DNA of 64,000 nt from Nitrososphaeria archaeon. GTDB lineage: Archaea; Thermoproteota; Nitrososphaeria; Nitrososphaerales; JAAOZN01. The number at the start of each line of letters is the position of its first letter. Positions within the stretch are counted from its first letter, which is position 1. Below the pieces are notes generated by a model that did not search any database, was not told the DNA's origin, and worked only from the letters and a program-made list of their open reading frames with translations. Position numbers and translations under genes: made by a program. The stretch spans positions 32,001 through 96,000 of the forward strand of contig JARVJZ010000004.1 of assembly GCA_029775855.1 (NCBI GenBank), given 5' to 3'. Of the stretch, positions 6,157-28,928 are shown in pieces.

Positions 6157-6160
6157 ACGA

Positions 6161-7486: not shown

Positions 7487-7599
7487 CTCTAAACACTAAC
7501 TGACTAACTAGACTTAAATGTTACTCTACGAGTTGCATCCCGTCAATCTTCTTCAACCATTATCAGTTAAAGATATTAATTTTCCTCTAGCATTCTATT

Positions 7600-8187
7600 T
7601 TGATGGATAAGATTAGGGTAGATGAGCGTACCGCACTTATAGTGGTTGATGTGCAGAATGACTTCTGCCCAGGAGGCGCTTTACCAGTTCCTGAAGGCGA
7701 CAGAGTTGTGCCTATAATCAACTGTTATATCGACATCTTTAGAGAGGCTGGTGCACCCATCTTCTTCACACGTGATTGGCACCCTAAAGACCACATATCC
7801 TTCAAGGGCTATGGTGGCATATGGCCTCCTCATTGTGTGCAAAATACTTGGGGTGCTGCTTTCCACCCGGCTCTTAAAGTGGGTGAAGAGGATGTGGTTG
7901 TTTCAAAGGGTTTTGAGCGGCTGAAGGAAGCGTACTCTGGCTTTGAGGGTACAGACCTTGATGAGCGTTTGAGAAGACTGTGTGTGGAGAGGCTGCTGGT
8001 CGGCGGGCTAGCTACTGATTACTGTGTTAAGAATACTGTGTTGGACGGTTTGAAAAGAGGGTACCGAGTATTTTTGCTTGAAGATGCTGTGCGTGGTGTA
8101 GATGTTAAGGTAGGGGATAGCATTAGAGCGGTGGAAGAGATGGTTAAGTCGGGAGCGGTGAAGATAACACTTAAAGACCTTTTGTAA
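7600..8187 (+). CDS. pncA: Nicotinamidase/pyrazinamidase
   Basis: VDVQNDF.PGGAL, RDWHP..H.SF, WPPHCVQ, YSGF, GLATDYCV. Confidence 0.92.
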   Translation: MMDKIRVDERTALIVVDVQNDFCPGGALPVPEGDRVVPIINCYIDIFREAGAPIFFTRDWHPKDHISFKGYGGIWPPHCVQNTWGAAFHPALKVGEEDVVVSKGFERLKEAYSGFEGTDLDERLRRLCVERLLVGGLATDYCVKNTVLDGLKRGYRVFLLEDAVRGVDVKVGDSIRAVEEMVKSGAVKITLKDLL

Positions 8188-8231
8188 GGCAGCACTCTAG
8201 ATGCATCATCACATTTAGAGGAGTATCTTTC

Positions 8232-8552
8232 TTACCGCATTATTGGGCTATTCTCGCTGATCTGCTCGAGAATGTTTAGGTATGCGCGTAAAATGTTGAA
8301 GCCTTTTTGTGTCAACTCGTATCTCCTTCTATTACCAAATTCGAATTCAGCTAAGAAGCCGTTTTCAACAAGGCTCCTAAGGTGTGTCTGGAGAATCGCC
8401 CAAGATATGTTTGCTTTATACATTATTTGTGTTGGTTTCTCTATACCCTCTTTTACGATGCGAAGAATGTCCATCTTAATCTCAAGATGAGAGCGGCGAA
8501 TAAGCTTTTGAGACTTACCAACAACATTCTGTTCGAGTTTCTCCACGTTCAC
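8232..8552 (-). CDS. Small archaeal winged-helix DNA-binding protein
   Basis: RRSHLEI..DIL, PTQIMYKANISW, L..NGFL, YELTQKG. Confidence 0.85.
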   Translation of the reverse strand: MNVEKLEQNVVGKSQKLIRRSHLEIKMDILRIVKEGIEKPTQIMYKANISWAILQTHLRSLVENGFLAEFEFGNRRRYELTQKGFNILRAYLNILEQISENSPIMR

Positions 8553-8628
8553 ACCTCTTTTTAGAAGTTAAGAAGGAGGAGATATATATGGTTTAGTGTG
8601 TTCAAATCTGTACCGCAAATCTATTAAA

Positions 8629-10356
8629 TTATAGTGGAAATGGCATAAATGCTCTAAGTAAACATACCGCTGTGACGGTCATTACTACGAGAATTAGAGA
8701 ATGTTTGAACCCTTGAGCTACGCTACTTTCACCCATCTTGCCTGCTACAAGCCCTATTATCCAGCTTTGAAATACCGCTGCGGTAAGCAACATGTCTGTC
8801 GTAGACTTTAAGCTGGCTTGTGTGGTAAGTGGGTTGGCGATGTGTGTAGATGCAAGTGGCTGCATTATGAAGAATATAGTGAGGAATAGGCTGACTACCA
8901 TCAATATCGCTGAGAAGTATGTAATAAATACATATGGTTTAAGTGAAGAGCGTTTTGACCGCTCTAACTCATCTACTTTATACGTGAATGTGGCCATCTC
9001 AACAAAGCTTTTTAGCGTTCCGCCTCCAACATCTATCACCTCCATAACAATGCTTCCTATTACCTTAGTGAGCCAGCTGTTGACTTCCGTGTTGAATGTT
9101 GAAATTACTTTTCGTAGCGGAAGCCCCCAGCTAAGTTGATAGCTCATCTTCTTGATGTGCTTCGTCAAATTACCATAATTCCTATCAGCTAGTGACTCTA
9201 TACACTTTTCAGGAGAAAGCCCCATCTTTCTACCCTCAGCAATGCCTTTAAGAAAGAGTGGAAGCATCTTCTCTAAGGCATACCTATTCTTTGCTTCACG
9301 GTATGCTTGAACTCCTGGTAAAGCTACGCAAACCATAAGCGCTACGGCTGTGATCATATAATGTGGTATAAGGTGTGCGGCACTGTATCTGAGCATAAAG
9401 TAGATGAGTCCACCAACTATTGATGAGATAAAAAAGAGCTTGTATGATCTCCAGTCCATAAACGGCTGCTTAAACTGAATCTGATCTAAAATCCAGATGT
9501 AAATAAAGGATATGAGAGGCACACCTAAAAATGAGAATAGAAGTATGCTCTCTAGACCCGTATTCAGGTTTGATAACATAGTCTGCATCTGATATACCGC
9601 AAAAAGGCTAATCCCCAGCACAGCGGTTAGGATGATGTACGATTCAGCTAGCATACTTATTGTGTCTGAGGCTCTTTTGATCCTAGCACTTCTTTCTTCA
9701 TATATTTCGCTTAGTTTTACGTTAAGGTAGTTTACATGGTCCCCGCCCATCTTTAGAGTTGTGGTGTAGCCGTTAAGAAAGTCTGAAAATGTTCTGTTAG
9801 GGTTGTATTTGGCAGCTTTCTCTAACGCTGAGAGTGGGTCTAAGCCGAACACATCTATATCAACCAATATTCTCTTGGCTTCTTTTGAGGACGCAGGGAA
9901 GATGCTGCTCAACTCCGCTATCCTCCTTAAGGCGATTATAGGCGACAAACCGCCACCCGCCATAGCCGCCATAAAGCCTATCAGAAAAGGGATCTCAGTA
10001 TCAAGAGCAGCTGCACGAGAAGACTGACTAAATTTAGGTGCGTTCCACACAAGTAAAAATGCTAGGGGTGGTACTAAAATTAGAAGAGCGGTTGGGGTTA
10101 CGCCTGCGATTATGCCTAAGATACATCCAAGTGTCGCTACAATAACTGATAATGTGGTAACAAGAAGTGCTACGGAAACCAAGCCTTGAGGAGACACATG
10201 TAGATCTGATTTGAGGAGTTCTTCTTTTAATTCTGGCGTTGCTCTTGAAATCGATTCTGCGTAACGTTGGAATATTCTGTACGCAAATCCTGTGAACTTG
10301 TCGAAAAAGCTGAGGTTCATGTCTAAACGTTCTGAATTGAATCTCCTTACATTCAT
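8629..10356 (-). CDS. Type IV pilus membrane platform protein (PilC/TadC/ArlJ family, two T2SSF domains)
   Basis: Multiple TM helices; G.DPLSALE..A..NP; GLVAGKMGESSVAQGFKHSLIL; adjacent to the assembly ATPase. Confidence 0.9.
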   Translation of the reverse strand: MNVRRFNSERLDMNLSFFDKFTGFAYRIFQRYAESISRATPELKEELLKSDLHVSPQGLVSVALLVTTLSVIVATLGCILGIIAGVTPTALLILVPPLAFLLVWNAPKFSQSSRAAALDTEIPFLIGFMAAMAGGGLSPIIALRRIAELSSIFPASSKEAKRILVDIDVFGLDPLSALEKAAKYNPNRTFSDFLNGYTTTLKMGGDHVNYLNVKLSEIYEERSARIKRASDTISMLAESYIILTAVLGISLFAVYQMQTMLSNLNTGLESILLFSFLGVPLISFIYIWILDQIQFKQPFMDWRSYKLFFISSIVGGLIYFMLRYSAAHLIPHYMITAVALMVCVALPGVQAYREAKNRYALEKMLPLFLKGIAEGRKMGLSPEKCIESLADRNYGNLTKHIKKMSYQLSWGLPLRKVISTFNTEVNSWLTKVIGSIVMEVIDVGGGTLKSFVEMATFTYKVDELERSKRSSLKPYVFITYFSAILMVVSLFLTIFFIMQPLASTHIANPLTTQASLKSTTDMLLTAAVFQSWIIGLVAGKMGESSVAQGFKHSLILVVMTVTAVCLLRAFMPFPL

Positions 10357-10357
10357 T

Positions 10358-11950
10358 CTAAAACACTTCCGCCTCGATCTCTACATCCATCTTCGGCAGT
10401 TCGGCTGATATCTTAGAAAACATGCTGTTGGGGGATGAGGCGTAATCTTCTAAAATCAGAGAGAGTTCTTTGTAGTTTCTGATGTTCTTTTGCTGAACCC
10501 ATTTCAACACAAGACTTCTCCTTCTTATCTCATCTTCCAATTCTTCTATCGAGAGGCCAAGGTCTCTTGATAACCTTGCGAGCTTTATGCTCTTCTTAAA
10601 GGGTTGAGCGGTAAATGTGTCTGAAATTGGATCCCACTCGAACATCTTGAGGTAGTTTCCAACGTTTATCACTTCTTCGACCGATACTATTCTTCTAATG
10701 ATCTTTGAACTCGATTGAGAGGGCAACGTGATTCTTTTGATCACAAATACGAGGTCGAGAAATGGTATGAAAGAGGGTGCTACATCCATAGGTTTTGATG
10801 TTAGACGCTGTATAGCTGAAGCTGCATCGTCAGCATGTAGGGTACAAAGCCCTCCATGCCCAGTTCCTATTGCTTGAAATAGCACGTAAGCTTCTTCTCC
10901 CCGCACTTCACCTACTACAAGAATGTCTGGTCTCATCCTCATTGCAACCTTTACAAGATCAAACAGACCAACTTCAGTCGATCTTTCACCACCTGTGTAG
11001 TAGATCGGTCTGGAAGTGAGGGCAACCCAGTTTGAATGTGCTATATTTATCTCTCTGACCTCTTCTATTGTGATGAGTTTTGAATTCATGCGGGTTAGTG
11101 TTAGAAGTGCGTTTAGCAGCGTGGTTTTGCCAGAGCCTGTAGTTCCGACTACTACGGCCGTAGCTCTATTCTCCATCAGCAGCCAAGCATATGCTGCTAA
11201 GGTGTGGTTTAGCACGTTTAGGTTGAGCATATCCACTATGGTGATAGGGTCCTCTCTGAACTTTCGTATTGTGAAGGTGCCGCCGTTGGGCGAAATTTCA
11301 CGCTTATATGTCGCTGATAACCTATGCCCCCCTGGTAGGGTGCCTTGGATTATTGGGTAGGCTGTTGATATATGCTTTCCAGACATGTGACATAATCGTG
11401 TTATTAAGTTGTCTACAGATTCTTCTTCCTTTAGTTTGATGTTGGTTGCGAGGCTCTCGTATCTGCGGTGGAATACAAAGACTGGTCTTCCAACACCGTC
11501 TAAAGATATGTCCTCTATGTTTGGATCTCTCATAAGTCCGTCCAGTATGCCGAATCCTACCAAGTCTCTTTCTGCATAGTAGAGTATCTTGTTCCAAGAG
11601 GTTAAGGAGACTTTTCTCTTATATTTTATCAGCACCCTCTTACCCTGCTGCATAAAGTATTCCCTTGGGTTGATCTTATCTCTCGGCACTGTAAGCTCGT
11701 TTTCTAGAATGTTGAGAAGGTGTGTGTATACGCTTGCCTCTATAGGGTTTAGAGGCACCTCGTCCAAGAAGTAGATCTTTGTTGATGAAGAAGGTTCCTG
11801 GGCTATTGTTGCGTAAGCGAATGGTGCGTTTAAAGGGTAGCGCTCCAAGATCTTGTAGGATGCTGGTATAGCTTCGCCAAGCGTGGGGAATCTTAACTGC
11901 TCTTCTTGCTCTCTTGTATTTCTTTTGAGCATCTTAAAGATCTGTACCAA
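10358..11950 (-). CDS. Type IV pilus assembly ATPase (PilB/ArlI/VirB11 family)
   Basis: DPNIEDISLDG, FTIRKF, Walker A GTTGSGKTT, MRMRPDILVVGEVRGEEA, TGHGGLCTLHA. Confidence 0.94.
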   Translation of the reverse strand: MVQIFKMLKRNTREQEEQLRFPTLGEAIPASYKILERYPLNAPFAYATIAQEPSSSTKIYFLDEVPLNPIEASVYTHLLNILENELTVPRDKINPREYFMQQGKRVLIKYKRKVSLTSWNKILYYAERDLVGFGILDGLMRDPNIEDISLDGVGRPVFVFHRRYESLATNIKLKEEESVDNLITRLCHMSGKHISTAYPIIQGTLPGGHRLSATYKREISPNGGTFTIRKFREDPITIVDMLNLNVLNHTLAAYAWLLMENRATAVVVGTTGSGKTTLLNALLTLTRMNSKLITIEEVREINIAHSNWVALTSRPIYYTGGERSTEVGLFDLVKVAMRMRPDILVVGEVRGEEAYVLFQAIGTGHGGLCTLHADDAASAIQRLTSKPMDVAPSFIPFLDLVFVIKRITLPSQSSSKIIRRIVSVEEVINVGNYLKMFEWDPISDTFTAQPFKKSIKLARLSRDLGLSIEELEDEIRRRSLVLKWVQQKNIRNYKELSLILEDYASSPNSMFSKISAELPKMDVEIEAEVF

Positions 11951-11956
11951 AGCTTT

Positions 11957-12961
11957 TCACCCACTGTATAGTGTGGTGACATAAGGTGAATTTTGACCAT
12001 AGTTTGCAGGCGTGCTCCATATTTGACTGTAGTCTACGCCGATCCAGCCGTGAGAGAGTATTAGCACACCAGCTAAGGTGCCAGAAGGTGGAACTTCATC
12101 GCCCGAAAGTGTAACCGGCTGAAATGTGTAAGGTGTTCTTGACGCAAAGACAAGTACTTTTGGCTTATCGTATTCTAGTTCGATGGGTGTGTAGGTGTTT
12201 AATATTGTGTTTGACTGGTTTGAGACTATGTACCAAGTAGCTCTTCTCATGCTTGAACCTACTCCCCAAAACTGAAATATTCTGGTATATCCATCTAGGA
12301 TTATATTCTTCTGGGCTGCGTTAAGATTTGTTACAACAACTGAAAAGGCTGACGAGTATGTGCTGATAAAACTTCTTGGTATTGTGAAGGCTTGACCTTG
12401 ATAATATAATGTTTGGTAGGAGACGCGGTAATACCCATAAGAGTCAAAGTCGAGGTAAAGATCTCCTATAGCTCCACTAGATAGGGCTCTGGCTGCTAAC
12501 TCGTTATTTACAGGAGGGTATGTCGCTGAATATATGTTTCCTCTTTCAGTTAAGAGCTTAACTTGATATTGGGTGGCGCTGCTGTATACTACGTCAGTAT
12601 TTATGGTTTCTGAAGCAAGTGGATTCAAGAAGATAGGTAGCTTTGGAGCTATGGATGTGCTGCTCGTATTATAATATGCAAGTATCTGCCCTTCTTTATT
12701 TCGCACAGTGAGCGCAACTACAGCCGAAGAGATCACACCTTTATTAGTGACCACTACTCTCATTTGATCATTTACAAAGTCCACCATAAGTTCTAACTTT
12801 TCTTTTAATATATCCTGCGCTTGTGCGCTGTTTTCGACATGTGCTCGAACGTAAAGCTTGTTAATCTGATTTACGGCGATTAAGTAAGTAGTTCCTACAG
12901 TAAAGAGCATCGTAAAGAGCATCGCAGCAGCAACAATGCCAGAGACACCCCGCTTTAACAT
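11957..12961 (-). CDS. Large minor pilin / putative adhesin with class III signal peptide
   Basis: MLKRG|VSGIVAAAMLF.. followed by a beta-rich body; in the pilus operon. Confidence 0.75.
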   Translation of the reverse strand: MLKRGVSGIVAAAMLFTMLFTVGTTYLIAVNQINKLYVRAHVENSAQAQDILKEKLELMVDFVNDQMRVVVTNKGVISSAVVALTVRNKEGQILAYYNTSSTSIAPKLPIFLNPLASETINTDVVYSSATQYQVKLLTERGNIYSATYPPVNNELAARALSSGAIGDLYLDFDSYGYYRVSYQTLYYQGQAFTIPRSFISTYSSAFSVVVTNLNAAQKNIILDGYTRIFQFWGVGSSMRRATWYIVSNQSNTILNTYTPIELEYDKPKVLVFASRTPYTFQPVTLSGDEVPPSGTLAGVLILSHGWIGVDYSQIWSTPANYGQNSPYVTTLYSG

Positions 12962-12964
12962 TCT

Positions 12965-13525
12965 TTACCACCTTTGGTAGTATATGAATATGTTTCCGTG
13001 CTTACCTAGTAAATTCACATAGTATGTTCGTCCGTTTACAAAGCCTTGCCATCCTTGAGGTATCAATAATGTGATTGTAGAGGCTTTCCCAGAAGAGAGT
13101 TTGAAGCTGGACAGCCTAGGCACTTCAAGTAAAGGGTTATTGTCTACTAGCACGTAGGTGGTGGGTTCGTTTAGATTTACGACATGAGATGCGTTATATA
13201 AGTAGTATAGCGATCTAGAGTGGTTGTAGACCAAGATTTGGTTGAACTCTAAATCTACTCCTCCACTATTATAGAGCCAGATAGTGACTGAGTTTATAGT
13301 GTAGTTTAAGTCGAGGATAGTAGCTTTCTCGTTAAGAAAGTTAACAACATCTTCCACACTCTTACCGTATAGGTTAACGCTTTCTGTGCTTCGAGCGTTT
13401 ATGTAGTAGAAGATTGCTGAGCCTGAGATGATTGTTATAGTGACTGTGAGAAGAGTAGCCATAAGCTCAGATATTCCAGCTCTCCTACGCATAATACGTG
13501 CAGCACGCATATCTACACGCTTCAC
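12965..13525 (-). CDS. Type IV pilin-like protein (class III signal peptide)
   Basis: RRRAG|ISELMATLLTVTIT; IWLYNSG motif. Confidence 0.82.
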   Translation of the reverse strand: MKRVDMRAARIMRRRAGISELMATLLTVTITIISGSAIFYYINARSTESVNLYGKSVEDVVNFLNEKATILDLNYTINSVTIWLYNSGGVDLEFNQILVYNHSRSLYYLYNASHVVNLNEPTTYVLVDNNPLLEVPRLSSFKLSSGKASTITLLIPQGWQGFVNGRTYYVNLLGKHGNIFIYYQRW

Positions 13526-13584
13526 AACAACCAGATTTTATATCATTTATGTAGCAATGATATGGATTACTAATATATTTCGAA

Positions 13585-13624
13585 ATAAAAAAATATTCTA
13601 GAAGCGCCACCAGCACCGGCGCTT
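13585..13624 (-). terminator. GC-rich hairpin plus T-tract downstream of the major pilin gene
   Basis: AAGCGCC (13602-13608) pairs with GGCGCTT (13618-13624), 9-nt loop; followed on the - strand by TATTTTTTT. Confidence 0.6.
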
Positions 13625-13645
13625 GACTACGTAGCCCTAACCAGC

Positions 13646-14131
13646 CTATACGAAGGTTCCAACGAAAGGTACTTGGGCACCGTTCGATAGTACAACTGCG
13701 CCTGTGAACTGCTGACCTGAGGTAGGTAGACTACTAAGACCAGTTATATAAATGGTTTGAGTACCGCCAGCTGAGATTGTACCACTACTAGCACTGGCAA
13801 AGTATGTTGAGCCACCATATGTTAGTGAAAGGCCGCTTATGCCTATGCTGCTTGTTCCAGAGTTAACTAATATTATGGTTCCGACATAATTTTGTGGTTC
13901 TTGACCAACTTGGATCACGAATGTTCCTGCTTGTTGCGGAACCGCTATTTGGGCATATGTTACCGAGACTTGTGCTGTTGAGGTTTGTGAGCTGAAGACG
14001 CCGAATATGAATCCGCCTACGGCTACTGCTGCGACGAGTGTGACCGCTACGAGTGTCAGTGTGGCTATGATGGGTGATATCGCTTTCCTCTTGTTTCTAC
14101 ATCTTCCTTGCATAGGCGGATGAAGGTTCAA
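13646..14131 (-). CDS. Archaeal type IV pilin, probably the major subunit
   Basis: KRKA|ISPIIATLTLVAVTLVAAVAVGGFIFG; Ser/Gly/Thr-rich globular domain. Confidence 0.88.
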   Translation of the reverse strand: MNLHPPMQGRCRNKRKAISPIIATLTLVAVTLVAAVAVGGFIFGVFSSQTSTAQVSVTYAQIAVPQQAGTFVIQVGQEPQNYVGTIILVNSGTSSIGISGLSLTYGGSTYFASASSGTISAGGTQTIYITGLSSLPTSGQQFTGAVVLSNGAQVPFVGTFV

Positions 14132-14231
14132 CTTAATTTAAAATTCTTGTGGATTCTCGCTTTATCTTCTAAATATGGAATCAGAATACATAAGATTTAA
14201 AATGTGTTACTAGCATCTTTATACCCTTGAT

Positions 14232-14732
14232 ATGGAGCCAGTAACGAAATCGATTATGGACGCATCTATGTTGCGTATAGTGAGGGAGACGCAGAGCACA
14301 CTTGCACAGCTCATAGAGATGCACGATTTACAGACAAACTATACTCTAAGACTCTTGGGTTCATTAAGGTCTCTTCAAGCATTTATCAAAGATACTATTC
14401 CAGTAGACCCGAATAAGCTTGGATGCCCCTATCACAACATCAAAGAAGCATATCTACTACCAGAAGCCCAGATACTAATGATTAGAGAAGATGGCAAAAT
14501 AGCATCCGAATCGCTAACCAGTTTGGAGCCCGCTAAAGTATTAGCAGTACTAGAGGAGTGCCTACCAGCCATCAACCAAATCATAGCAGCGAAGAAGCAG
14601 ATGGTTGAGGAGCGAGTCGAACTGCTTGAGCAGCTGGTAAAGGAGTTCAAGAAGATCAATGAAACACTGAACCCTGTAGATGAAAGTAATTTAGCCGAAG
14701 ATGTTGTTCAAAAGGCGCTTAGTGAAGCATAA
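14232..14732 (+). CDS. Hypothetical protein with a C-terminal coiled coil
   Basis: Plausible ORF with TATA-like TTTATA upstream; heptad-rich C-terminus. Confidence 0.65.
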   Translation: MEPVTKSIMDASMLRIVRETQSTLAQLIEMHDLQTNYTLRLLGSLRSLQAFIKDTIPVDPNKLGCPYHNIKEAYLLPEAQILMIREDGKIASESLTSLEPAKVLAVLEECLPAINQIIAAKKQMVEERVELLEQLVKEFKKINETLNPVDESNLAEDVVQKALSEA

Positions 14733-14744
14733 AGAGGAAGACTT

Positions 14745-15227
14745 TTGAACATAAAGCAGGAGAAAGCCCAAGTAATAGATGGGTTGAAGACCTTCTACGA
14801 ATTTGAGGAGCTAAAAGCTTTCGGCAGTGACCTATTAAGATACTATGAAGCGAGAGTGGAGCAATACAGCCAAAGACTAGACACAATGCTTAGGCAACAA
14901 AGTAATGGAAAGGGCGTGGTCAACAAGCCTCAATCTCATATTTCTAGTGGGTGGATTAGAGTCGGAACTTTAGTTGTCAACATGAGTAACCCCGTTCAAG
15001 CGACGACCGAACTCCTCTTTAAGCTGCTTGAAGATGCCAAAGCTAAACTAGATGCGACGAAATCCTTTCTTGAATCGTTAGAGAGTGTCTTAAACATAGG
15101 CGCGAATAAAGAAGTAAACTATCTTCTATGCGTAAGGAATGGTGTCCCAGAGAAAATAATCCTTGAGGAGCGTAAGAGGGGTAAGGAATTTAACTATAAT
15201 GTGAAGCTTCAAGTAGTATCTGATTAG
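14745..15227 (+). CDS. Hypothetical helical-hairpin/coiled-coil protein
   Basis: GAGG RBS; two long amphipathic helices; ends in NGVPEKIILE. Confidence 0.65.
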   Translation: MNIKQEKAQVIDGLKTFYEFEELKAFGSDLLRYYEARVEQYSQRLDTMLRQQSNGKGVVNKPQSHISSGWIRVGTLVVNMSNPVQATTELLFKLLEDAKAKLDATKSFLESLESVLNIGANKEVNYLLCVRNGVPEKIILEERKRGKEFNYNVKLQVVSD

Positions 15228-16885
15228 AAGAGACTAGAAAGTTCAAAGTATGCTCTTACAAAAAACTTCATCATCTGATAGGGCTCCATCAAATCGCAGT
15301 TTACGGTAAAGAACCCACGTATAGATGGATTAGTTATACCTATACCAAGCAGAAGCACGCCAGACCTAGACGTTTTACGTATCTTAAAAACAAGTTCGCG
15401 CTCTATACCTGTATACCCAACAGGATACCCATCGGATATAACCATCAAGATCCTGGGTTCAACAGGAAGGGAGGTTAGGGCTTTGGAGCAAACTGAAATC
15501 GCATCTGGCAGAAAGGTAGAGCCACCTTGTAGTAAACCACCGATACGTGCCTTAACATCCATAGAGTACGGTTCGTTGAAGTCCTTAAGAACAAGAAAGT
15601 TGTTATTAAACGCAAATAGACCCCAGAGGTTGCGCTCAGAGAATAGATCTTTTGCCACCTCAGCCAAACATACTGCCAACTTCCTAACTTCGGGTGCTGT
15701 GGAACCAATGCTTTTACTTGCGTCGAGCAGAATAGCCCAGGCTTCACGTTTAAGCACTTTCTCATCTCTTGTGAAGACATCATTTCTTAAACTCCTTGAA
15801 GCTACAACCTGTATCGCGGTCTGCGTATCCAACTGCCCACTTTCGTCACCGCTTACTTCATCTTCAGCCGTCTTTAGCAACCTAAGTTGATTCCTGATAT
15901 TTGCTATAACCCCTGCCAGATTAGCCCTTATACGAAGAAACATCGCATAGTCACCACGTGGGACCACTAAATCCTCAAGTCTCGTGGCGGCGATGATTTT
16001 TTCAAACCGCTCCTTTAGCTTATTTATTTTAACCTCCGCTGCTTCGAATTCTTGCAAGTTTTCTAGTTTCTCATCTCTCAATTCTTCTGCCTTCAAACCT
16101 AAACTACTGAAGCTTCTACGTAAAAGTTCTTGGGATTCATCTATCGAACTCCCTTTGAAAACATTTGTTCTACCATGTGACTCGGTGTAGGGAAAAGAAG
16201 GAATCTCTGTCAACGACCCTCTTCTATATAGAGCGGAATACATAAGTTGTGCGCCTTCTATAAGTTTGTTCTGTTCACCGCTTTCAACTGCCTCGAGCAC
16301 AAGCTCCCTGAGCTTCTTGGTAGTTTTTATCGCTTCTACATCCAGCGGTGTTAAAGAACGCATACTATTCTCTAACCCCCATGCCGCCAACAAGAGAACT
16401 GTAGCGTATCTAAGAGGCTCATCGTAGAGAAGCATATGCTGATTTAGTCGCAGTGCAGAGAGGTAATTAGAGTATGCTATATCATAAAGGATACCAGGGT
16501 GGTTCTTAGCAGCTCTGTATGTTGCGTGTAGGTCTTCAAGAAGTGTCACACAAAATATTGCAGCCTTTGTATCCTTGCCCTTAGCCCAAGACTTGTAAAC
16601 CTCAAAGTTTGAGTACGCTATGTGAATTGCTGCGTGATACAGTGAAGCCTTGAATGTTCTCCATAAATTTGACCAGCCCTCTACATTAGTTTCATAATAC
16701 TCGCCGTGGAGGGTATAAAGGTCGCTTCTTAAGCGCTTTGGAAGAGGTATTTTGACGACATACCCTGCCTCATCAAATGATAATATCGGGTAAGTTAAAT
16801 GTTCATCTAAGATCAACCTTACTTTATCGAAGTCTTTCTGCGCTATGTCTATAAAGGTGTTCCAAGCAAAGTTAAGTATGTTCAT
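15224..16885 (-). CDS. VWA-domain protein, NorD/CbbO-like
   Basis: SGQLD; intact MIDAS LLDASKS...GST...ISDGYP; directly downstream of the AAA+ gene. Confidence 0.85.
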   Translation of the reverse strand: MNILNFAWNTFIDIAQKDFDKVRLILDEHLTYPILSFDEAGYVVKIPLPKRLRSDLYTLHGEYYETNVEGWSNLWRTFKASLYHAAIHIAYSNFEVYKSWAKGKDTKAAIFCVTLLEDLHATYRAAKNHPGILYDIAYSNYLSALRLNQHMLLYDEPLRYATVLLLAAWGLENSMRSLTPLDVEAIKTTKKLRELVLEAVESGEQNKLIEGAQLMYSALYRRGSLTEIPSFPYTESHGRTNVFKGSSIDESQELLRRSFSSLGLKAEELRDEKLENLQEFEAAEVKINKLKERFEKIIAATRLEDLVVPRGDYAMFLRIRANLAGVIANIRNQLRLLKTAEDEVSGDESGQLDTQTAIQVVASRSLRNDVFTRDEKVLKREAWAILLDASKSIGSTAPEVRKLAVCLAEVAKDLFSERNLWGLFAFNNNFLVLKDFNEPYSMDVKARIGGLLQGGSTFLPDAISVCSKALTSLPVEPRILMVISDGYPVGYTGIERELVFKIRKTSRSGVLLLGIGITNPSIRGFFTVNCDLMEPYQMMKFFVRAYFELSSLF

Positions 16886-16901
16886 AGACAGGGTTGCAAC
16901 T

Positions 16902-17885
16902 CTATTTTTTCTTGCTGAAGATCAGCTGCAGCGTTGTTCTAATGCTGTTCTGCACCTCTGCGTCATCTGATGCCACACCTACAATGGTCTCTTCAGCAGC
17001 CACAAGAGGTGGTAACCCATCTGCTATGAGCGTTGCCCAGTTGATTAGGTCTCCCACAGAAGGTGCGTAGGGTAAGTCTCCACTCTTATATCGTCTTCTT
17101 AATTCAGCAGCAGCCCTTACTATACTCTCGGATAATTCTCTTGAAACCTTTGTTCTTTCGCATACAAGATCTATTTCACGCTCTGAAATGTTTGAACCAA
17201 CGCTTAAATAGTCGAAGTTTATCCATACGCTTAGCCTCCTCCTAAAGGCTACGTTAAGAGGCTTTGTCCCGGCAAATTCGACTGAATATGGGTTCATGCT
17301 AATAATTACGTAACCGTATTTATGTCTGGGTATTACCTCGTTGTCTTTTTCTGCCAAGACAAGATGCCCTCTAGTATCTAGGAGTGGGTTAAGGCGTGTT
17401 GCTACATCTTGCTTCATCATATTAGCCTCATCAAGATAGAGAATCCCACCGTGCCTACACCAAGAAACAATCAAGCCGTCTACCCAGTTCTCCTTACCAA
17501 GACCGACAAACCTCCCGAACAAATCATATACAGATGTCTGAAGACTGCAGTTAATCTCCCAAAGAGGTAAACCCGCAATCTTCGCGACCAAGTAAACTAC
17601 ATGTGTCTTGCCAGTTCCACTCGGTCCTATGAGCGCACACTGCTTAAAGTGATAGAGGGCACGCATAAGTCTTTGAACATACCGCTCAGTGTCTACAAAT
17701 TCAGGGACATCTCTTGGCACAAGGTTCTTTAGTGATTCCGGTAGTACGTAGCCGGCGCTAAGATCATATTGTGACACCTCATATTTTGTCTTAAGCCTCC
17801 CTTCACCAACCTTCTGTGTGATGTCAAGCTTTAGGCGAAGCTTAACATTAGCACCCTCGGCCCTAACTACCTTTTCAACACTCAA
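16902..17885 (-). CDS. MoxR-class AAA+ ATPase, CbbQ/NirQ/NorQ/GvpN type
   Basis: GPSGTGKT; DLFGRF; WVDG; LYLDEAN; LNPLLD; SMNP...GTKPLN.AFRRR. Confidence 0.9.
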   Translation of the reverse strand: MSVEKVVRAEGANVKLRLKLDITQKVGEGRLKTKYEVSQYDLSAGYVLPESLKNLVPRDVPEFVDTERYVQRLMRALYHFKQCALIGPSGTGKTHVVYLVAKIAGLPLWEINCSLQTSVYDLFGRFVGLGKENWVDGLIVSWCRHGGILYLDEANMMKQDVATRLNPLLDTRGHLVLAEKDNEVIPRHKYGYVIISMNPYSVEFAGTKPLNVAFRRRLSVWINFDYLSVGSNISEREIDLVCERTKVSRELSESIVRAAAELRRRYKSGDLPYAPSVGDLINWATLIADGLPPLVAAEETIVGVASDDAEVQNSIRTTLQLIFSKKK

Positions 17886-17990
17886 CTTCTTTCTAGTATT
17901 TGAAAACGCTTTAACAGATTAAACATTTATGAATTTAAGATATGTAGCTGAAATCCGTCTAACTTTTAACTCAAGGCTTTGTAGAAGTGG

Positions 17991-18401
17991 ATGATGGAAA
18001 TCATCGTCCTTTTGACAAGCATCCAAGCTACCAGATTATCAGAGGAGACTGATGAAGACGCTGATGTGGTATTCGAAGTAGATGCATCACTCTCTGAAAC
18101 GCGACGTTCATCGGACAAGATGAACATAAGGTTTAAGATAGACCTAGAGACTCAACCACAGATAGCCAAGGTCTCGCTTTCGGGTCTAACAACGATACAG
18201 GGAGAAGCAGATGAGGTGGAAAGGCTGATACACGTACAAGAAAGAAAACCTCCAAAAATATTCATGAAAATCTACCATAGACTTTACCCAACACTCTATC
18301 TACTATGCTGCGCATTAAAGATACCTTGCCCAGGACCAAAGCTTCTAGTAAACACAAACATAGTAGAAGCACAGGAGGTCCCCCAAAACGTTGAATCTTA
18401 G
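17991..18401 (+). CDS. Hypothetical protein, possible SecB-like alpha/beta fold
   Basis: About four alternating beta strands, then an amphipathic helix and LKIPCPGP; fold call is inference. Confidence 0.55.
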   Translation: MMEIIVLLTSIQATRLSEETDEDADVVFEVDASLSETRRSSDKMNIRFKIDLETQPQIAKVSLSGLTTIQGEADEVERLIHVQERKPPKIFMKIYHRLYPTLYLLCCALKIPCPGPKLLVNTNIVEAQEVPQNVES

Positions 18402-18541
18402 AAAAGATTTGAGCAAAGTTCTTACCTTTAAAGCTAGATTATTACTCAATATTGCTCAAAAAGACTCAAAATTTAGAAGCCAGTTATTAATCTTTAACAC
18501 ACAACTATTATATAATATTCCGTACAAGAATTAGAGGTAGA

Positions 18542-18757
18542 GTGATGATGGACCCGGTTTATGAATGTAGGATTTGCTTGAAGGAGTTTCAAGGTAAAAA
18601 TAATTTAGTTGAGCATTTGAGGACAGAGCATGAAGTTCTTGAGATCGTTTCCTATGCCGCTACGACTATGATAAGTGAGCAAGAACGAGACAAGATCGCT
18701 ATGGAGTATTATAGGCAGCTCGAGCATATCAAGAAGGAGTTAAGAGGACAGGCCTAG
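18542..18757 (+). CDS. Small C2H2 zinc-finger protein
   Basis: YECRICLKEF...LVEHLRTEH (C-x2-C-x12-H-x4-H); GAGGT RBS and upstream TATA. Confidence 0.85.
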   Translation: MMMDPVYECRICLKEFQGKNNLVEHLRTEHEVLEIVSYAATTMISEQERDKIAMEYYRQLEHIKKELRGQA

Positions 18758-18820
18758 GCCCCAATTATATATTTCGTATTCATAAATCTTATAGTTAACT
18801 CAAACTAGATTCTGATAGAC

Positions 18821-21811
18821 TTGAGAAACTCTTTCAGAAGAAGCATGCTCATTTTATCTCTACTATTACTGCAGGGCACCTTACTTATCACAATGCTGGA
18901 TATGAACGTGACCGCTCAAAACGAAGTGCTCACAACAGCAAGTCGATATAGGCTTGAGCTCACACTACCTATGCCTTATGTGCCAGCAGACGGCAAAACC
19001 TATCCCCTTATCCTACAGGTAGTAAATAATGACGGGCAACCTAGATTTCTCTCAAAAGATATCGTCGTTCAATTATCGTCTTCAAACATCACAGTTGGCT
19101 ACACTGAGCCAACGGCTGTACTGAAAGCTGGGGAATCATCGAGGGTAGTAGCCTTTAAGTCTACCTTCAACATAGGCTACACAAACATCACAGCTTCAGC
19201 GGGTGGTCTATTAAGCAGCACCACAACAGTAAGAACAGTCGGCATAAGCGGTGCTCCTGCAAAGCTCTCGGCGCAAGTTCTACCTAGTAGACCGTTAGCG
19301 AAAGCTGGAACAAAAGCAATAATAGTTGTAGAGATCTTAGATGGAAACGGTCTACCAGCACGCGCCGCTGAAGATCTTAACATATCACTTTTCTCTAGCA
19401 AAACTAGCATAGGGATAACCGATTCAACGCTTACTATACGTAGGAACAGCACATTTGGCACAGCGTATTTCTACCCAACAAACCAACCGGGCGTAACTGA
19501 AGTTAAGGCAGTTGCTTCAGGACTAAAATCCACTTCAATTGAAGTTACAACAGTTGCATATAATCCGAATAGGCTTGCTGTGTATCTGCTTCCGCCAATA
19601 TTACCTAAACAGAGTAAAGGTATTCTAATAGTCCAGATTCAAGACTCGTATGGCAGACCTCAAGTCGCAACCAAAGATGTTAAGGTTATTCTTACCTCTA
19701 ATGACACCAATACCGCGCTACTCGATGCAAACTTTCTAATTATACCTCAAGGGATGAGTTATGGAAGCGCTGAGATTACTACGGGCAATATCAGCGGTGC
19801 AGCCACGATATACGCATCAGCTCAAGGATATCGAAGCTCTAGTTCTACACTTTTGGTTAGAGAGATCCACGAAGCTAGAAATGGGCGGCTTCTACTCTCT
19901 TCTGTACCTAAGCTTATCGCAGATGGACAGGTTCATACCACAGTATCAGTAATCATGATGGACGATAACTTAACAAACCCTGTTAGACCTTCTTACCCTA
20001 CACAAATCTATCTAACTTCAAGCAACACGAAGATAGGTGTAGTTAGTGAAATCGTGTTGAACAAAAACGGATATGTTTACGCTAATTTTACGTGCAACAC
20101 ATCTGGTAACACAACCATCACCGCGACTGCGGACAACTTCGATGGTGATGGAGGTGTGGTATCGGTCGTGGAGAGAGTGAACTTCAAATTAAATATACAA
20201 GTCTGCCCATCCCTTATACCTATAGATTCACCTTACAAACCAATAGTTTTAGTGGAGATGCAGAATGCTCACGGCGAACCCACAGAAGCACCAACAGATG
20301 TTGAAATAAAGCTGTATTCATCAAATACCAAAGTCGGCTACGTTGAAGAATCTCTAACGATCAAGAAGTCTGAAAGCATAGGCATATCCTTCCTAAATTT
20401 ATCTTCAGAGCTCGGCAACACTACATTAACAGCCGCGGCACCTAACTTCATCGCTGCATCAACCAGCATATCAACATTTAGAGCCGGCCCTTCTACAACA
20501 TCTCTAAATATAGAGCCCTCAATCACAATAGCCGACGGCTCAACCATCCAAAATGTGTTCATTATGCTGCAAGATATGTTCGGATACCCTGCTAAAGCGC
20601 TGAACGACATCGAAATTAAGATTTCAACATCCAACGAGGTGATAGGCACCCTGCCAACCTCTTTGACTATACATAAAGACAATACTTGGATCACAACTTG
20701 GTTCACAAAGAGCAACATACAGGGCTCAACACAGATAACGGTACACGCTGAAGGTCTCCAATCCTCCACCAAGACTTTATCCACTATACTGCTTGACTTG
20801 AATCAGACTCTCTTTGCGCAAACGACTAAAATCTATGCAAACGACAAACTCGCCATCTACAGTAGCATACAATTTGAAGGATACCCTGTTAGCGGCGCCG
20901 ATGTTGAATGGTCAACTACAGGAAATCTGTTAGATGTGGTGTCAAAAAGCGATGCTGAAGGCGTTGCAAAGGCGATATTTACTTCACCTATAGAAGGTGA
21001 ATACACAGTGAAGGCCATCGTATCTAAAGCTGGTTTCAAGGTAACCGAAAGCAGTATTAAAGTATTAGTCAAACCGCGTTCACTTTATGTTGAAGTGAAA
21101 GCGCCAACAGAAGTACGCACATTTGAGGAGTCTGAAATCTCTATTAAAGTTTTGGAAGACGGTAGACCTATAGAAGGTACTGCTGTGAACTTTAAGCCTT
21201 CACAAGGCCTTCTAAGGATATTGAATAACATTACAGATGCGCAAGGGCTCGCGAAAGCCATCTTCAGCTGCAGCGAGCCTTTAAATGCAATAATACATTA
21301 TACAGTCAAAAAGACTGGCTACGTGGTTTACAATGGAAGCTTGATCATCAACGTTAAACCTCAACCTCTAACCATAGCATTGAATACCAACGCGTCGGTA
21401 ATTGATGTTAACAACGCACTCGAAGTCACAGCATCTGTAACAAGCAAGGCCGGGGCTGTGGAAGGCGTAAAACTCAATTGGAACGTAATTGGTGGAACCA
21501 TAGTTACCAAGAGTGATGTGACAGATGCACAAGGTAGAGGGAGGCTTATTCTTAGAGGTGAAGATGCAGGTAAAGTGTCGATAGATGTTACTGCAGCGAA
21601 AAAAGGCTACAGTTCAACTATGGCATCTATAAACGTTGAAATTCTTCCTCTACCGCTTTACCAATCTATTGCTACATTCTCATTCTGGCAGAAGAACCCT
21701 TTAGCTGCTTCGATGGTTGCAGTCCTTGCTATAGTCTGCGTCTTTTTAGTTAGAATGTTAAAAAAGAGGGCGGATGCTACAAAGCAGGATGAGTTAGAGC
21801 TTATAGGGTAA
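18821..21811 (+). CDS. Large Ig-like repeat cell-surface protein (invasin/intimin Big_1-like) with a C-terminal membrane anchor
   Basis: Signal peptide; six ~100-aa repeats with L.SSN..(I/V)G; three repeats with (S/T)DA.G.(A/G); C-terminal TM plus KKR; many N-x-S/T sequons. Confidence 0.85.
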   Translation: MRNSFRRSMLILSLLLLQGTLLITMLDMNVTAQNEVLTTASRYRLELTLPMPYVPADGKTYPLILQVVNNDGQPRFLSKDIVVQLSSSNITVGYTEPTAVLKAGESSRVVAFKSTFNIGYTNITASAGGLLSSTTTVRTVGISGAPAKLSAQVLPSRPLAKAGTKAIIVVEILDGNGLPARAAEDLNISLFSSKTSIGITDSTLTIRRNSTFGTAYFYPTNQPGVTEVKAVASGLKSTSIEVTTVAYNPNRLAVYLLPPILPKQSKGILIVQIQDSYGRPQVATKDVKVILTSNDTNTALLDANFLIIPQGMSYGSAEITTGNISGAATIYASAQGYRSSSSTLLVREIHEARNGRLLLSSVPKLIADGQVHTTVSVIMMDDNLTNPVRPSYPTQIYLTSSNTKIGVVSEIVLNKNGYVYANFTCNTSGNTTITATADNFDGDGGVVSVVERVNFKLNIQVCPSLIPIDSPYKPIVLVEMQNAHGEPTEAPTDVEIKLYSSNTKVGYVEESLTIKKSESIGISFLNLSSELGNTTLTAAAPNFIAASTSISTFRAGPSTTSLNIEPSITIADGSTIQNVFIMLQDMFGYPAKALNDIEIKISTSNEVIGTLPTSLTIHKDNTWITTWFTKSNIQGSTQITVHAEGLQSSTKTLSTILLDLNQTLFAQTTKIYANDKLAIYSSIQFEGYPVSGADVEWSTTGNLLDVVSKSDAEGVAKAIFTSPIEGEYTVKAIVSKAGFKVTESSIKVLVKPRSLYVEVKAPTEVRTFEESEISIKVLEDGRPIEGTAVNFKPSQGLLRILNNITDAQGLAKAIFSCSEPLNAIIHYTVKKTGYVVYNGSLIINVKPQPLTIALNTNASVIDVNNALEVTASVTSKAGAVEGVKLNWNVIGGTIVTKSDVTDAQGRGRLILRGEDAGKVSIDVTAAKKGYSSTMASINVEILPLPLYQSIATFSFWQKNPLAASMVAVLAIVCVFLVRMLKKRADATKQDELELIG

Positions 21812-21854
21812 TATAATTTATTTTCTACTATCTGCGAGTGGGCAAAAGTTATAT

Positions 21855-22214
21855 GTGACCCCTAGCTGTCTAAAGGGTAAATTGGCTGTCTCTAAAAAAA
21901 GTCATATCCGGTTAATATTGGGTTCAGTTGCAATATTTATCGTCGCTTTTCTGTTATTCATTTTGCTCTGGTATTTTATTCTGCTAATGGCGCCAACAAT
22001 CCTTTCAATGTTCACAGGGGTTACAGAAGTCGGTAGACCTACAGGTGGGACTATTGAGATTCTTAAGCTACAGGAGCAGCTAAGTGTGGTTGTTTTACGG
22101 TGGGGACTTATCCCTATATTCATAGGTGGCTTAGGAGATCTAACACCCTACTATGTTGGATATGGTATTATAGTGGCGCTTCTTCTTGTTTGGCGTGCAA
22201 AGAAGAGGTGGTGA
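21855..22214 (+). CDS. Small membrane protein
   Basis: 2-3 hydrophobic segments and a basic C-terminus. Confidence 0.6.
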   Translation: MTPSCLKGKLAVSKKSHIRLILGSVAIFIVAFLLFILLWYFILLMAPTILSMFTGVTEVGRPTGGTIEILKLQEQLSVVVLRWGLIPIFIGGLGDLTPYYVGYGIIVALLLVWRAKKRW

Positions 22215-22438
22215 ACCTGTTGAATGTATCGACGATTCGGAACATATGGGCTGTTTTTGGCGCTATATGGTTCGTAATATTCTTTACATTAACCTTTGTC
22301 AAGGAGCTTATGGAGCCTATGGCGATTATAGCTGCAATCAGCCTCTACGCTGGAATGATTCTAGCAGCCTTCACAGTAGTTTACTTAGCATATACCTTGA
22401 TTAGAAGGTTGTTAAAGGGAAGCAGAAAAGGAGGCTAA
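22211..22438 (+). CDS. Small two-TM membrane protein (start re-assigned to GTG 22211)
   Basis: GAGGTG then GTGA start/stop overlap with the upstream gene; MNLLNVSTIRNIWAVFGAIWFVIFF... Confidence 0.6.
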   Translation: MNLLNVSTIRNIWAVFGAIWFVIFFTLTFVKELMEPMAIIAAISLYAGMILAAFTVVYLAYTLIRRLLKGSRKGG

Positions 22439-22920
22439 GTTATCACAACTACAGCTGGCGCCTGTGAACCAGACTCTATTGCTTCATTGTAGTTGGGTAT
22501 GTAGTAAGCCACTAAACCTTGAGAAGGCTTATTCCCTTTGATAAGCAGAATCTGAAAGTCTTCGCCTACTTCAAACGAAGAGATCGTGCTTGTCACAACT
22601 CTTGCGTCAATAAGTAGGCTATTTTGGTTTAGAAACTTGTAGCCGCCCGTAAATATAAACGACACCTCATATTCTTGCCACACCCCGCGGATAAGGTATG
22701 ATGCTTTGTGGAAACCACTCCCCTTTGCAACTCCGTCATGTATTAATCCCGAGCCTTGCCAAGTGTTAAAGGCAACTCCTCCGCCTGGTATGCCAAATGT
22801 ATGTCGAGCTGAAAATAGGAAGCTATGCTGGTTTTGCTGCGCAACAACCTGAGCTAAGGGCAGCATCAAAAATAAGAGTGAAATAGTTACCGTGGTAAAC
22901 AAGAAGTATCGACTCATCAA
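22435..22920 (-). CDS. Secreted beta-rich hypothetical protein
   Basis: Signal peptide ..PLAQVVA|QQ; GAGGA RBS. Confidence 0.65.
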   Translation of the reverse strand: MMSRYFLFTTVTISLLFLMLPLAQVVAQQNQHSFLFSARHTFGIPGGGVAFNTWQGSGLIHDGVAKGSGFHKASYLIRGVWQEYEVSFIFTGGYKFLNQNSLLIDARVVTSTISSFEVGEDFQILLIKGNKPSQGLVAYYIPNYNEAIESGSQAPAVVVIT

Positions 22921-28481: not shown

Positions 28482-28928
28482 CTAATCTTGCTGAGATTCA
28501 CTTTCGTAGTCAAGTATATGCTTTTCTTCTTCGGATAGTTTCTTGCCTATATGGCTATAGACGCCAATTTTCAACGCCTTATAGGGTAGAAGGGCGCATT
28601 TAATTCTGACGGGGTTGAGCCCGAGCGTCTCTATCCCTAATGCTTCAAGTAGATCTTTTTTAGAGAAGGATAGTAGATCATCAAGTTTCTTACCTTTTAG
28701 GAGCTCTGTCATCAAGGAGGCTGATGCAACACTTATCGCGCAACCTCTGCCTTTGAACTTTATATCTTTAACATTCTTCTCTTCATCGAACTTTATATAG
28801 AGTTCGATGTCGTCACCGCAAAGCGGGTTAGATTCCTGAACCTTTATTTCAGCATCTTCTATGCTACCATAGTTTCTTGGATGCCGGTAGTAGTCTAGTA
28901 TCATGTCTCGATAGATTTCTGAGCTCAT
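28482..28928 (-). CDS. sufU: SufU/IscU-type Fe-S scaffold or sulfur acceptor
   Basis: HPRNYG, NPLCGD, GCAISVASAS, RIKCA. Confidence 0.93.
   Translation of the reverse strand: MSSEIYRDMILDYYRHPRNYGSIEDAEIKVQESNPLCGDDIELYIKFDEEKNVKDIKFKGRGCAISVASASLMTELLKGKKLDDLLSFSKKDLLEALGIETLGLNPVRIKCALLPYKALKIGVYSHIGKKLSEEEKHILDYESESQQD

Follow-up and report, generated by a model that had tools for sequence, protein, structure and literature searches.

A MoxR-class AAA+/VWA gene pair and its partner genes at a type IV pilus locus of a Nitrososphaeria archaeon

Which task does an ATPase pair of the MoxR/VWA type fulfil in the middle of an archaeal pilus locus? MoxR/VWA remodellers are widespread, and clients are known for few of them: Rubisco, NO reductase and chelatases. 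NorQ/NorD serves the insertion of FeB into cNOR, and CbbQ/CbbO is a Rubisco activase. We analyzed a 64,000-nt stretch of DNA from a Nitrososphaeria archaeon (assembly GCA_029775855.1, contig JARVJZ010000004.1, positions 32,001 to 96,000), in the following called the window. At positions 8232-22438 it carries pilus genes, an AAA+ gene directly followed by a gene with a VWA (von Willebrand factor type A) domain, and several small genes. The region is an archaeal type IV pilus locus, distinct from the archaellum, of a thaumarchaeal kind that was catalogued in 2016. The pair is part of a larger conserved module, an accessory that some but not all pili of this type have. Its linkage to pilus genes is tight in Nitrososphaerota and missing in most Bathyarchaeia. 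By analogy with the known remodellers, we lean towards the reading that the pair would assist or regulate the pilus machinery as a chaperone driven by ATP. A previous interpretation made from the DNA letters (the sequence-only reading) had proposed an undescribed system in which the pair controls a pilus or an adhesin.

The two genes of the pair lie on the minus strand. AAA (16902-17885) encodes a MoxR-class AAA+ protein of the CbbQ/NorQ/GvpN subfamily with matches to AAA_5 (72.5 bits) and CbbQ_C (56.1 bits) in the family scan, which covered 16 locus proteins with Pfam and NCBIfam. VWA (15224-16885, 553 aa) encodes the adaptor with a metal-ion-dependent adhesion site (MIDAS); its C-terminal VWA domain scored 20.8 bits (cut-off 23.8). 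The best single-domain matches of AAA in the PDB are CbbQ with 78 bits and NorQ with 76 bits. As a GvpN equivalog it scored 39.1 bits against TIGR02640, far under the cut-off of 266.8. A match to Midasin (191 bits, E 2.8e-55) was rejected as a sign of special kinship, because it is the sum over six AAA modules, the best of which reaches 50.3 bits and stays below the 78 bits of CbbQ. The family profile of VWA matched NorD with E 2.8e-14 at profile positions 339-533, i.e., in the VWA region only, and CobT was matched as well. AAA is unusually conserved: its 30 aligned sequences show no variation in Walker A, Walker B (D152/E153), N198 and R215-217, and the MIDAS residues D388, S390, S392 and D485 are invariant in 29 aligned VWA orthologs. 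Judged from these motifs, both proteins therefore look active.

The pilus genes are also located on the minus strand. The assembly ATPase is encoded by pilB (10358-11950), which is of the PilB type and matched T2SSE (PF00437) with 123.5 bits (cut-off 24.9); its best NCBIfam model is the FlaI equivalog with 343.8 bits (cut-off 550). The platform protein of the PilC/TadC type is encoded by pilC (8629-10356), in which T2SSF (PF00482) was found in two stretches with 67.5 bits. Its top NCBIfam models are BasF and UpsF, both under their cut-offs. Three pilin genes were identified. The probable major pilin, pilin161 (13646-14131, 161 aa), matched TIGR02537 with 35 bits (cut-off 20) and Pilin_N with 23.9 bits. 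For pilin186 (12965-13525, 186 aa) a weak UpsB match was obtained (34.2 bits, cut-off 70); it has a class-III-like N-terminus by sequence pattern and syntenic homologs in related loci (tblastn). The third, pilin334 (11957-12961, 334 aa), is pilin-like: it has no Pfam or NCBIfam match, its N-terminus is class III-like by eye (basic-Gly-hydrophobic), and homologs occupy the equivalent position in the related loci L045, L046 and L048. The final gene of the pilus strand is wHTH (8232-8552), with matches to HTH_45 (71.7 bits) and the Sso10a family (69.6 bits).

Is this an archaellum? The sequence-only reading had denied it, since arlH and che genes are absent, and this holds: no arlH or che family match was found among the genes of the block, and ArlH, ArlF/G and archaellin were not matched by Pfam or NCBIfam within 8232-22438. 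The genome encodes two T2SSE ATPases. The second one is situated on contig C1 in a canonical archaellum locus, with ArlI at 664.9 bits (cut-off 550), the FlaH subfamily (ArlH) at 280.4 bits (cut-off 194), an archaellin (PF01917) at 106.6 bits, and matches below cut-off for the ArlJ, ArlF/G and flagellin models. As the true ArlI belongs to this archaellum locus, the locus in the window is a separate type IV pilus system. One prepilin peptidase was found in the genome, on contig C2 (PF01478, 48.8 bits).

The archaellum locus (L126; G000:C1:193000-212999) contains four open reading frames (ORFs) without family match at 5725-8425 (136, 212, 199 and 216 aa). They flank an ArlF/G-like gene and are located 5' of ArlH. 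In Thaumarchaeota, an unknown gene replaces ArlCDE/ArlX (2021 review), and the four ORFs are candidates for this replacement.

How far does the conserved unit extend beyond the pair? In a collection of species-representative genomes we found 384 relatives of AAA, and the best 80 (61-73% identity) were examined. They come from metagenome-assembled genomes labelled Nitrososphaerota/Thaumarchaeota and Bathyarchaeia. ORFs were clustered over 81 sources, i.e., these 80 loci and the first 32 kb of the window. An AAA ORF was called in 80 of the 81. In 79 of these 80 the next gene is VWA, at a median distance of 14 bp; in the remaining one, L088, the sequence stops 380 nt past AAA. On the plus strand of the window, cc166 (14232-14732) and cc160 (14745-15227) form a two-gene operon without family matches. 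The order cc166-cc160 was found in 51 sources (median gap 12 bp), and cc160, which encodes a helical-hairpin protein and is convergent with VWA, lies tail-to-tail with it in 52 sources (median gap 11 bp). Also on the plus strand, p136 (17991-18401) encodes a protein with a SecB fold, as judged from a predicted model and Foldseek. It is divergent from AAA here and in 27 sources altogether, with a median gap of 130 bp. In total, cc166 was found in 62 sources, cc160 in 58, a TrmB-family regulator in 42 and p136 in 32, the last mostly Nitrososphaerota; a wHTH homolog adjoins the module in 15. The conserved unit therefore exceeds the pair and consists of the AAA-VWA operon, the convergent cc166-cc160 operon and, in Nitrososphaerota, the divergent SecB-fold gene. 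Since this core recurs in 80 related loci, the clustering goes beyond chance. No housekeeping gene interrupts the block in the domain scan, as the sequence-only reading had claimed.

Several observations on the surroundings of the module were made in passing. The Bathyarchaeia loci (L064-L123) keep a strict order of a Hel308-type helicase gene, NifS, NifU, NifS, c11 (89 aa), AAA, VWA, cc160 and cc166, followed by c8 (a small membrane protein), the TrmB regulator, c7 (a 500-aa multi-pass membrane protein) and then glycosyltransferase and dTDP-rhamnose genes. Family c4 was considered as prepilin peptidase and ruled out, as it is the TrmB-family regulator. Likewise, c8 was ruled out as the Bathyarchaeal equivalent of p136, being small and hydrophobic with DUF5658 as a weak match. 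In the Nitrososphaerota-type loci L047, L050, L053, L054, L056, L059, L061, L069, L096 and L112, a KaiC-family ATPase (c20) and/or a DUF7504 protein (c19) is encoded within a few genes of the module. Such loci often carry extra p136 paralogs, with three copies in L054. KaiC-family ATPases are predicted regulators of type IV pili in a survey of these systems (Makarova, Koonin, Albers 2016, PMC4858521). The title of L088, 'bacterium', is probably mistaken: this record has the archaeal module together with pilB and pilC, and on a tree its AAA falls within a Nitrososphaerota subclade.

Does the module belong to the pilus? A link of this kind has been described. In the same survey, a vWA protein (arCOG02900) and a GvpN-like ATPase (arCOG00441) are strongly linked to thaumarchaeal type IV pilus loci of subclade 4A, and a regulatory role is predicted for the vWA and GvpN/MoxR pair as an alternative regulatory pathway (PMC4858521). 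The part of the sequence-only reading that called the system undescribed is thus superseded by what this source already reports. Literature searches for later functional work on the pair gave nothing beyond this survey and reviews.

For 12 of the 80 loci in our set, tblastn with the window proteins placed pilB and/or pilC at most about 10 kb from AAA. Loci were counted as linked if pilB or pilC matched, as unlinked if neither did and both flanks measured 8 kb or more, and otherwise as too short to judge. Among Nitrososphaerota-type sources, including the window, 11 are linked, 4 unlinked and 18 too short; the corresponding numbers for Bathyarchaeia are 2, 21 and 24. On a quick maximum-likelihood tree of AAA, where the window protein forms a long branch beside L045, each of the four Nitrososphaerota subclades contains linked loci, and so does a single small subclade of Bathyarchaeia. 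The linked loci show at least five different gene orders. The pilus operon is located downstream of cc166 in the window, L045, L046 and L048, upstream of p136 in L069, L088 and L107, directly 3' of VWA in L079, and divergent from cc166 in L080 and L110. Of the proposal that the pair controls a pilus or an adhesin, an association with the pilus in Nitrososphaerota is supported; the adhesin-like gene Ig996 is a separable neighbour (see below). The sequence-only reading had further named orthologs away from filament genes as an observation that would count against it; such orthologs prevail in Bathyarchaeia (2 linked vs. 21 unlinked) and not in Nitrososphaerota, where 11 linked loci in several arrangements stand against 4.

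Co-occurrence was studied in a sample of 41 genomes drawn from the same order as the window genome; this sample and the 80 loci overlap in contigs, and their counts are not additive. An AAA ortholog (65-72% identity) is present in 12 of the 41. A close pilB (>400 bits) was found in all 12 of these and in 7 of the 29 genomes without AAA. For comparison, the genome's own ArlI scores 254 bits in this search. Five Bathyarchaeia genomes with the module were checked as well, and all five encode a related pilB (48-50% identity) elsewhere.

Further evidence comes from variation between strains. In the metagenomic DNA run X2 two forms occur at similar depth: a 123-nt contig (depth 12.5) in which 8211 is connected to 21840 through 59 different letters, and a 13,692-nt contig (depth 15; right flank 25) that spans 8182-21873. 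The whole 13.6-kb block at 8212-21839, from wHTH through Ig996, looks like a presence/absence polymorphism, as judged from overlaps of 30-34 nt in assembled contigs. Both breakpoints (8211/21840) are intergenic, and no repeats flanking them were found.

Three genomes of the same genus (G001, G002 and G003) were compared between the same flanking genes, and pilus genes were not found there in any of them. G002 keeps intact wHTH, cc166, ZnF and a homolog of Ig996; it is devoid of pilC, pilB and the pilins and, as a separate gap, of cc160, VWA, AAA and p136. Across this 98%-complete genome no close pilB and no AAA ortholog was found with the window queries, and in G003 this pilB, AAA and VWA are missing as well. 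Pilus genes and AAA/VWA genes were thus lost jointly, in G002 as two separate gaps between which wHTH and cc166 were kept. In G001 (L043, G001:C22, 1352-2929), a 1.1-kb segment with a 317-aa HExxH metalloprotease-like ORF stands in place of everything from wHTH to most of AAA. AAA is reduced there to a 99-residue remnant that breaks off in Walker A, and p136 to 51 residues, and ZnF, Ig996, tm119 and tm112 are matched full-length. In G003, an Ig996-like gene, split over two contig ends, starts about 80 nt from the flanking isochorismatase-family gene.

The genes that persist in these genomes are ZnF (18542-18757, 71 aa), Ig996 (18821-21811, 996 aa) and the two small genes tm119 and tm112 (together 21855-22438), all on the plus strand. 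ZnF matched zf-C2H2 with 20.7 bits (E 5.5e-4, cut-off 25.2) and shows a visible CxxC...HxxxxH pattern; its homologs occur only in close relatives. Ig996 is an Ig-repeat surface protein with matches to Big_1 (75.8 bits) and Invasin_D3 (43.6 bits). The tm119 and tm112 products have no family match, appear hydrophobic by eye and are encoded to the right of breakpoint 21840, outside the variable block; both genes are conserved in G001-G003. As ZnF, Ig996, tm119 and tm112 are kept without the pilus and AAA/VWA genes, they are separable neighbours, and the proposal of a single 14-kb system is not supported. The two ORFs of tm119 and tm112 overlap by 115 nt in different frames. The true start of tm112 is probably located after 22100, because the G002 match covers only tm112 residues 35-110. 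In G002 the remaining genes are arranged compactly (L147, G002:C4, 8068-12315): wHTH is divergent from cc166, which is followed by ZnF and a gene for a 1010-aa Ig protein with gaps of 19 and 50 nt. From this arrangement, cc166 may also work with ZnF and adhesin genes.

What could the module do at the pilus? The genomic context makes a cytoplasmic component of the pilus machinery, or one of its regulators, the likeliest client. As in NorQ/NorD and CbbQ/CbbO, an AAA+ hexamer with the VWA adaptor would remodel this client at the expense of ATP. The MIDAS site of VWA would grip an acidic residue of a cytoplasmic protein that is part of the pilus assembly machinery or controls it. Candidates are PilB, the cytoplasmic face of PilC, cc166/cc160, or prepilins held by the SecB-like p136. 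In this mechanism cc166 and cc160 might serve as scaffold or client and p136 as holdase, and the module would gate filament assembly or activity post-translationally.

The predicted structures bear on these roles. The AlphaFold model of p136, built on 27 homologs, has a mean predicted local distance difference test (pLDDT) value of 86.6 and consists of four long predicted strands and a long helix. Foldseek matched it to SecB and Rv1957 (5mtw, 1fx3, 1qyn) with probability 1.0, E 6e-5 to 7e-4 and template modelling scores of 0.53-0.62. The sequence-only reading had called the protein SecB-like, and at the level of the fold this is correct. By sequence, Pfam and NCBIfam did not place p136 in the SecB family at E ≤0.01. 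One literature search for a SecB-like protein at archaeal pilus loci found no report.

The model of cc160 (pLDDT 84.5) consists of a strand, a 34-residue helix, a hairpin, a 35-residue helix and a second hairpin. Its top Foldseek rows are prefoldin subunits with weak E values of 0.15-1.3, and VIA-align gave Z 7.7 to 1fxk (prefoldin), tied with many unrelated helical hairpins. These matches are within the background, and neither the prefoldin fold nor that of generic helical hairpins was assigned. A match to designer PPR proteins (E 2e-34) was discarded: one 35-residue segment, modelled as a single long helix, is aligned to 8-10 identical repeats, and because a single segment is summed over repeats the match is an artefact of summation. 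For cc166, an atlas search returned clusters of hypothetical proteins only, and its profile found nothing below E 0.1 in the PDB. The two proteins are not detectably homologous to each other (hhalign probability 1.2%). Complex predictions of cc166 and cc160 with VWA as partner gave scores of 0.15 and 0.26, under the mark of 0.32; as runs without controls, they speak neither for nor against a complex.

A stronger form of the chaperone reading takes all five genes (p136, AAA, VWA, cc166 and cc160) as one chaperone machine in the cytoplasm that is dedicated to the type IV filaments of archaea. Here, p136 would hold prepilins or a subunit of the machinery, cc166/cc160 would form a scaffold at the PilB-PilC platform on which VWA docks, and the AAA+ ring would spend ATP to load or release subunits. 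We consider this form improbable. If true, it would give a SecB-type holdase its first role in Archaea and MoxR/VWA remodellers a new class of client.

Several points weigh against the chaperone reading, in which the tie of the pair to the pilus is inferred on genomic grounds. In 21 of 23 judgeable Bathyarchaeia loci, neither pilB nor pilC was found within 10 kb. The line of 400 bits for pilB was chosen after the scores had been seen, and at 300 bits 13 of the 29 genomes without AAA qualify. As 7 of these 29 have a close pilB even at the higher line, the pair is not needed for such pili. The genomes in these counts are related and do not represent independent cases, and the joint loss of the pilus and AAA/VWA genes within the genus may just reflect their adjacency. 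In G030 and G035, the orthologs of AAA and pilB are located on different contigs, and in the Bathyarchaeal genome G041 the nearest close pilB lies about 285 kb away on the same contig. Finally, a crude test for a shared operator was negative: the 7- and 8-mers conserved in 66 regions upstream of AAA are not those conserved in 57 regions upstream of cc166, with cross-counts of 0-6. The motif ATATATTTCG was rejected as such an operator, since it occurs 10 times in the window at ≤1 mismatch (4.8 expected) and also lies within coding sequence.

These points give room to the reading that AAA, VWA, cc166 and cc160 form an autonomous chaperone for a non-pilus client, for example a metal-cofactor or Fe-S enzyme as in NorQD, CoxDE or cobaltochelatase, with an incidental position next to the pilus. 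Beside the unlinked Bathyarchaeia loci, it draws on the pair being co-directional there with NifS-NifU-NifS-c11, at a median distance of 94 bp between c11 and AAA in 21 loci. NifS and NifU also occur in the window, about 11 kb from AAA on the same strand, and the closest solved relatives, NorQ/NorD and CobS/CobT, are metal-insertion systems. However, the NifS/NifU context is limited to closely related Bathyarchaeia and absent from the other Nitrososphaerota-type loci among the 81 sources. The linkage to pilB/pilC, in contrast, recurs with varied gene orders in every Nitrososphaerota subclade and in one of Bathyarchaeia, and each sampled genome with the module has a close pilB. Moreover, G002 lost the AAA/VWA block and the pilus block as separate gaps and yet together. 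We therefore regard an autonomous chaperone as unlikely, and keep to a chaperone that would serve the pilus machinery.

Could the pair act on transcription instead of assembly? VWA might be a phospho-regulated repressor in the manner of ArnB of Sulfolobus acidocaldarius; together with ZnF and wHTH, VWA would control the transcription of filament genes. ArnB shares arCOG02900 with the pilus-linked thaumarchaeal vWA proteins (PMC4858521), and the alternative regulatory pathway with a MoxR/GvpN ATPase proposed there would fit. DNA-binding proteins are encoded nearby, namely wHTH in the window and the TrmB-type regulator in 42 of 81 sources, and the ZnF gene lies beside p136 in close relatives. 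Other findings speak against it. ZnF has 71 aa and C2H2-type matches only, and it is intact in G001 and G002, where VWA is missing. No FHA domain or kinase was matched by Pfam or NCBIfam among the 16 locus proteins, and the block contains no kinase or phosphatase gene in these scans. Among the PDB matches of the VWA profile were NorD and CobT but no chain with the name ArnB. According to the survey, ArnA/ArnB are never encoded within type IV pilus loci, and ArnB is not paired with an AAA+ protein in Sulfolobus (PMC4858521). The ArnA/ArnB analogy drawn by the sequence-only reading is thus not upheld, and we find a transcriptional role of this kind distinctly improbable.

A defence or conflict island, with the pair as part of an anti-phage system, was also considered. 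MoxR-vWA pairs occur in described conflict systems, and the block, present in one form of run X2 and absent from the other, also differs within the genus. PADLOC, however, gave only weak generic P-loop matches for AAA (BrxF E 1e-4, IetA E 4e-4) and none for VWA, cc160, cc166 and p136. AAA is 61-73% identical over two archaeal classes, unlike fast-evolving defence genes. We hold this explanation to be very improbable. A classical CbbQ/CbbO or NorQ/NorD activase for a Rubisco or NO reductase encoded elsewhere is hardly credible: CbbQ_C and the best single-domain matches among solved structures would suit it, but neither enzyme lies in the window, as the sequence-only reading had seen, and RuBisCO_large (PF00016) and COX1/NorB (PF00115) had no match in the 98.4%-complete genome, whereas control genomes were matched, so that no such client was found genome-wide either.

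The gene list of the sequence-only reading was correct throughout: each ORF at 8232-22438 was recovered in its place with the domains named for it (ORF list, Pfam, NCBIfam), the coiled coil named for cc166 being a putative one. The next ORF, p161 (22435-22920, 161 aa), has no family match. In run X7, an RNA library that is available as assembled contigs, 14 contigs (≥99% identity) cover parts of wHTH, pilB, pilin161, cc166, cc160/VWA, Ig996 and p161, with 20 of 30 bins covered. Strand and level are not readable from such contigs, DNA carry-over is possible, and uncovered parts are uninformative; a contig over the pilin161 region (13614-14080) with a depth of 21.8 is accordingly no proof of transcription.

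Some 8 kb away from the pair described here, the window contains another MoxR/VWA pair that is unrelated to it, with an AAA_5 protein gene at 25902-26753 and a CoxE-type VWA gene at 26756-27928. A rubrerythrin-like gene is located 3' of it, and the other strand carries NifU (28482-28928) and NifS (28925-30160). Beyond NifU/NifS, LarC-type nickel-insertion and UDG genes were found.

What does the locus contribute? It adds little to the published association. New here are a longer parts list, which includes a SecB fold, the difference in linkage of Nitrososphaerota and Bathyarchaeia, the separable adhesin-like neighbours and the variability between strains. Archaeal surface filaments matter for the attachment and biofilms of ammonia oxidisers and their relatives, and a pilus-linked pair with 61-73% identity over two archaeal classes points to an unexplored step in the building or control of filaments. 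The parts list, the natural deletion series in one genus and the split in linkage narrow the candidates for biochemistry.

How does the module compare with known systems? With NorQ/NorD and CbbQ/CbbO it shares the arrangement of a MoxR-class AAA_5+CbbQ_C ATPase gene directly upstream of a large adaptor with a C-terminal MIDAS-VWA domain. It differs in that Rubisco and NO reductase were not found in the genome and that the adaptor aligns to NorD in the VWA region only. To our knowledge, cc166, cc160 and p136 have no counterpart in the NorQ/NorD or CbbQ/CbbO systems. The likeness to ArnA/ArnB lies in a VWA protein implicated in the control of a type IV filament. There, the partners of ArnB are an FHA/Zn-ribbon protein and kinases, whereas the pair in the window combines VWA with AAA+. 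The likeness of p136 to SecB and Rv1957 is one of predicted fold, with a sequence identity of just 6-20% and no sequence-family match.

The closest resemblance is found in the thaumarchaeal loci of the 2016 survey. In Nitrosopumilus AR2, genes for TrmB, arCOG11968, arCOG11534, FlaF-type and other pilins are listed together with arCOG05517 divergent from GvpN/MoxR, which is followed by vWFA, a pilin, FlaI, a REC protein and an MCP (PMC4858521, Table S4). In N. gargensis, two small genes are divergent from pilin-FlaI-TadC-HTH (PMC4858521, Table S4), and the window shows the same divergence of two small genes. The genes of both organisms correspond to cc160/cc166, p136, AAA and VWA by size, order, orientation and annotation, not by sequence, and by order, size and annotation, again not by sequence, pilB of the window would be placed with subclade 4A. 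The lineage of the window is an uncultured relative of these organisms. An occurrence of arCOG05517 in Thermofilum pendens, three genes from a stand-alone TadC (PMC4858521, Table S4), was too weak and was not used. A surface protein or adhesin is also noted in thaumarchaeal 4A/4I loci (PMC4858521). In its accessible part, the survey discusses the pair alone; the SecB fold of the small divergent gene and the distribution in Bathyarchaeia are additions of the present analysis.

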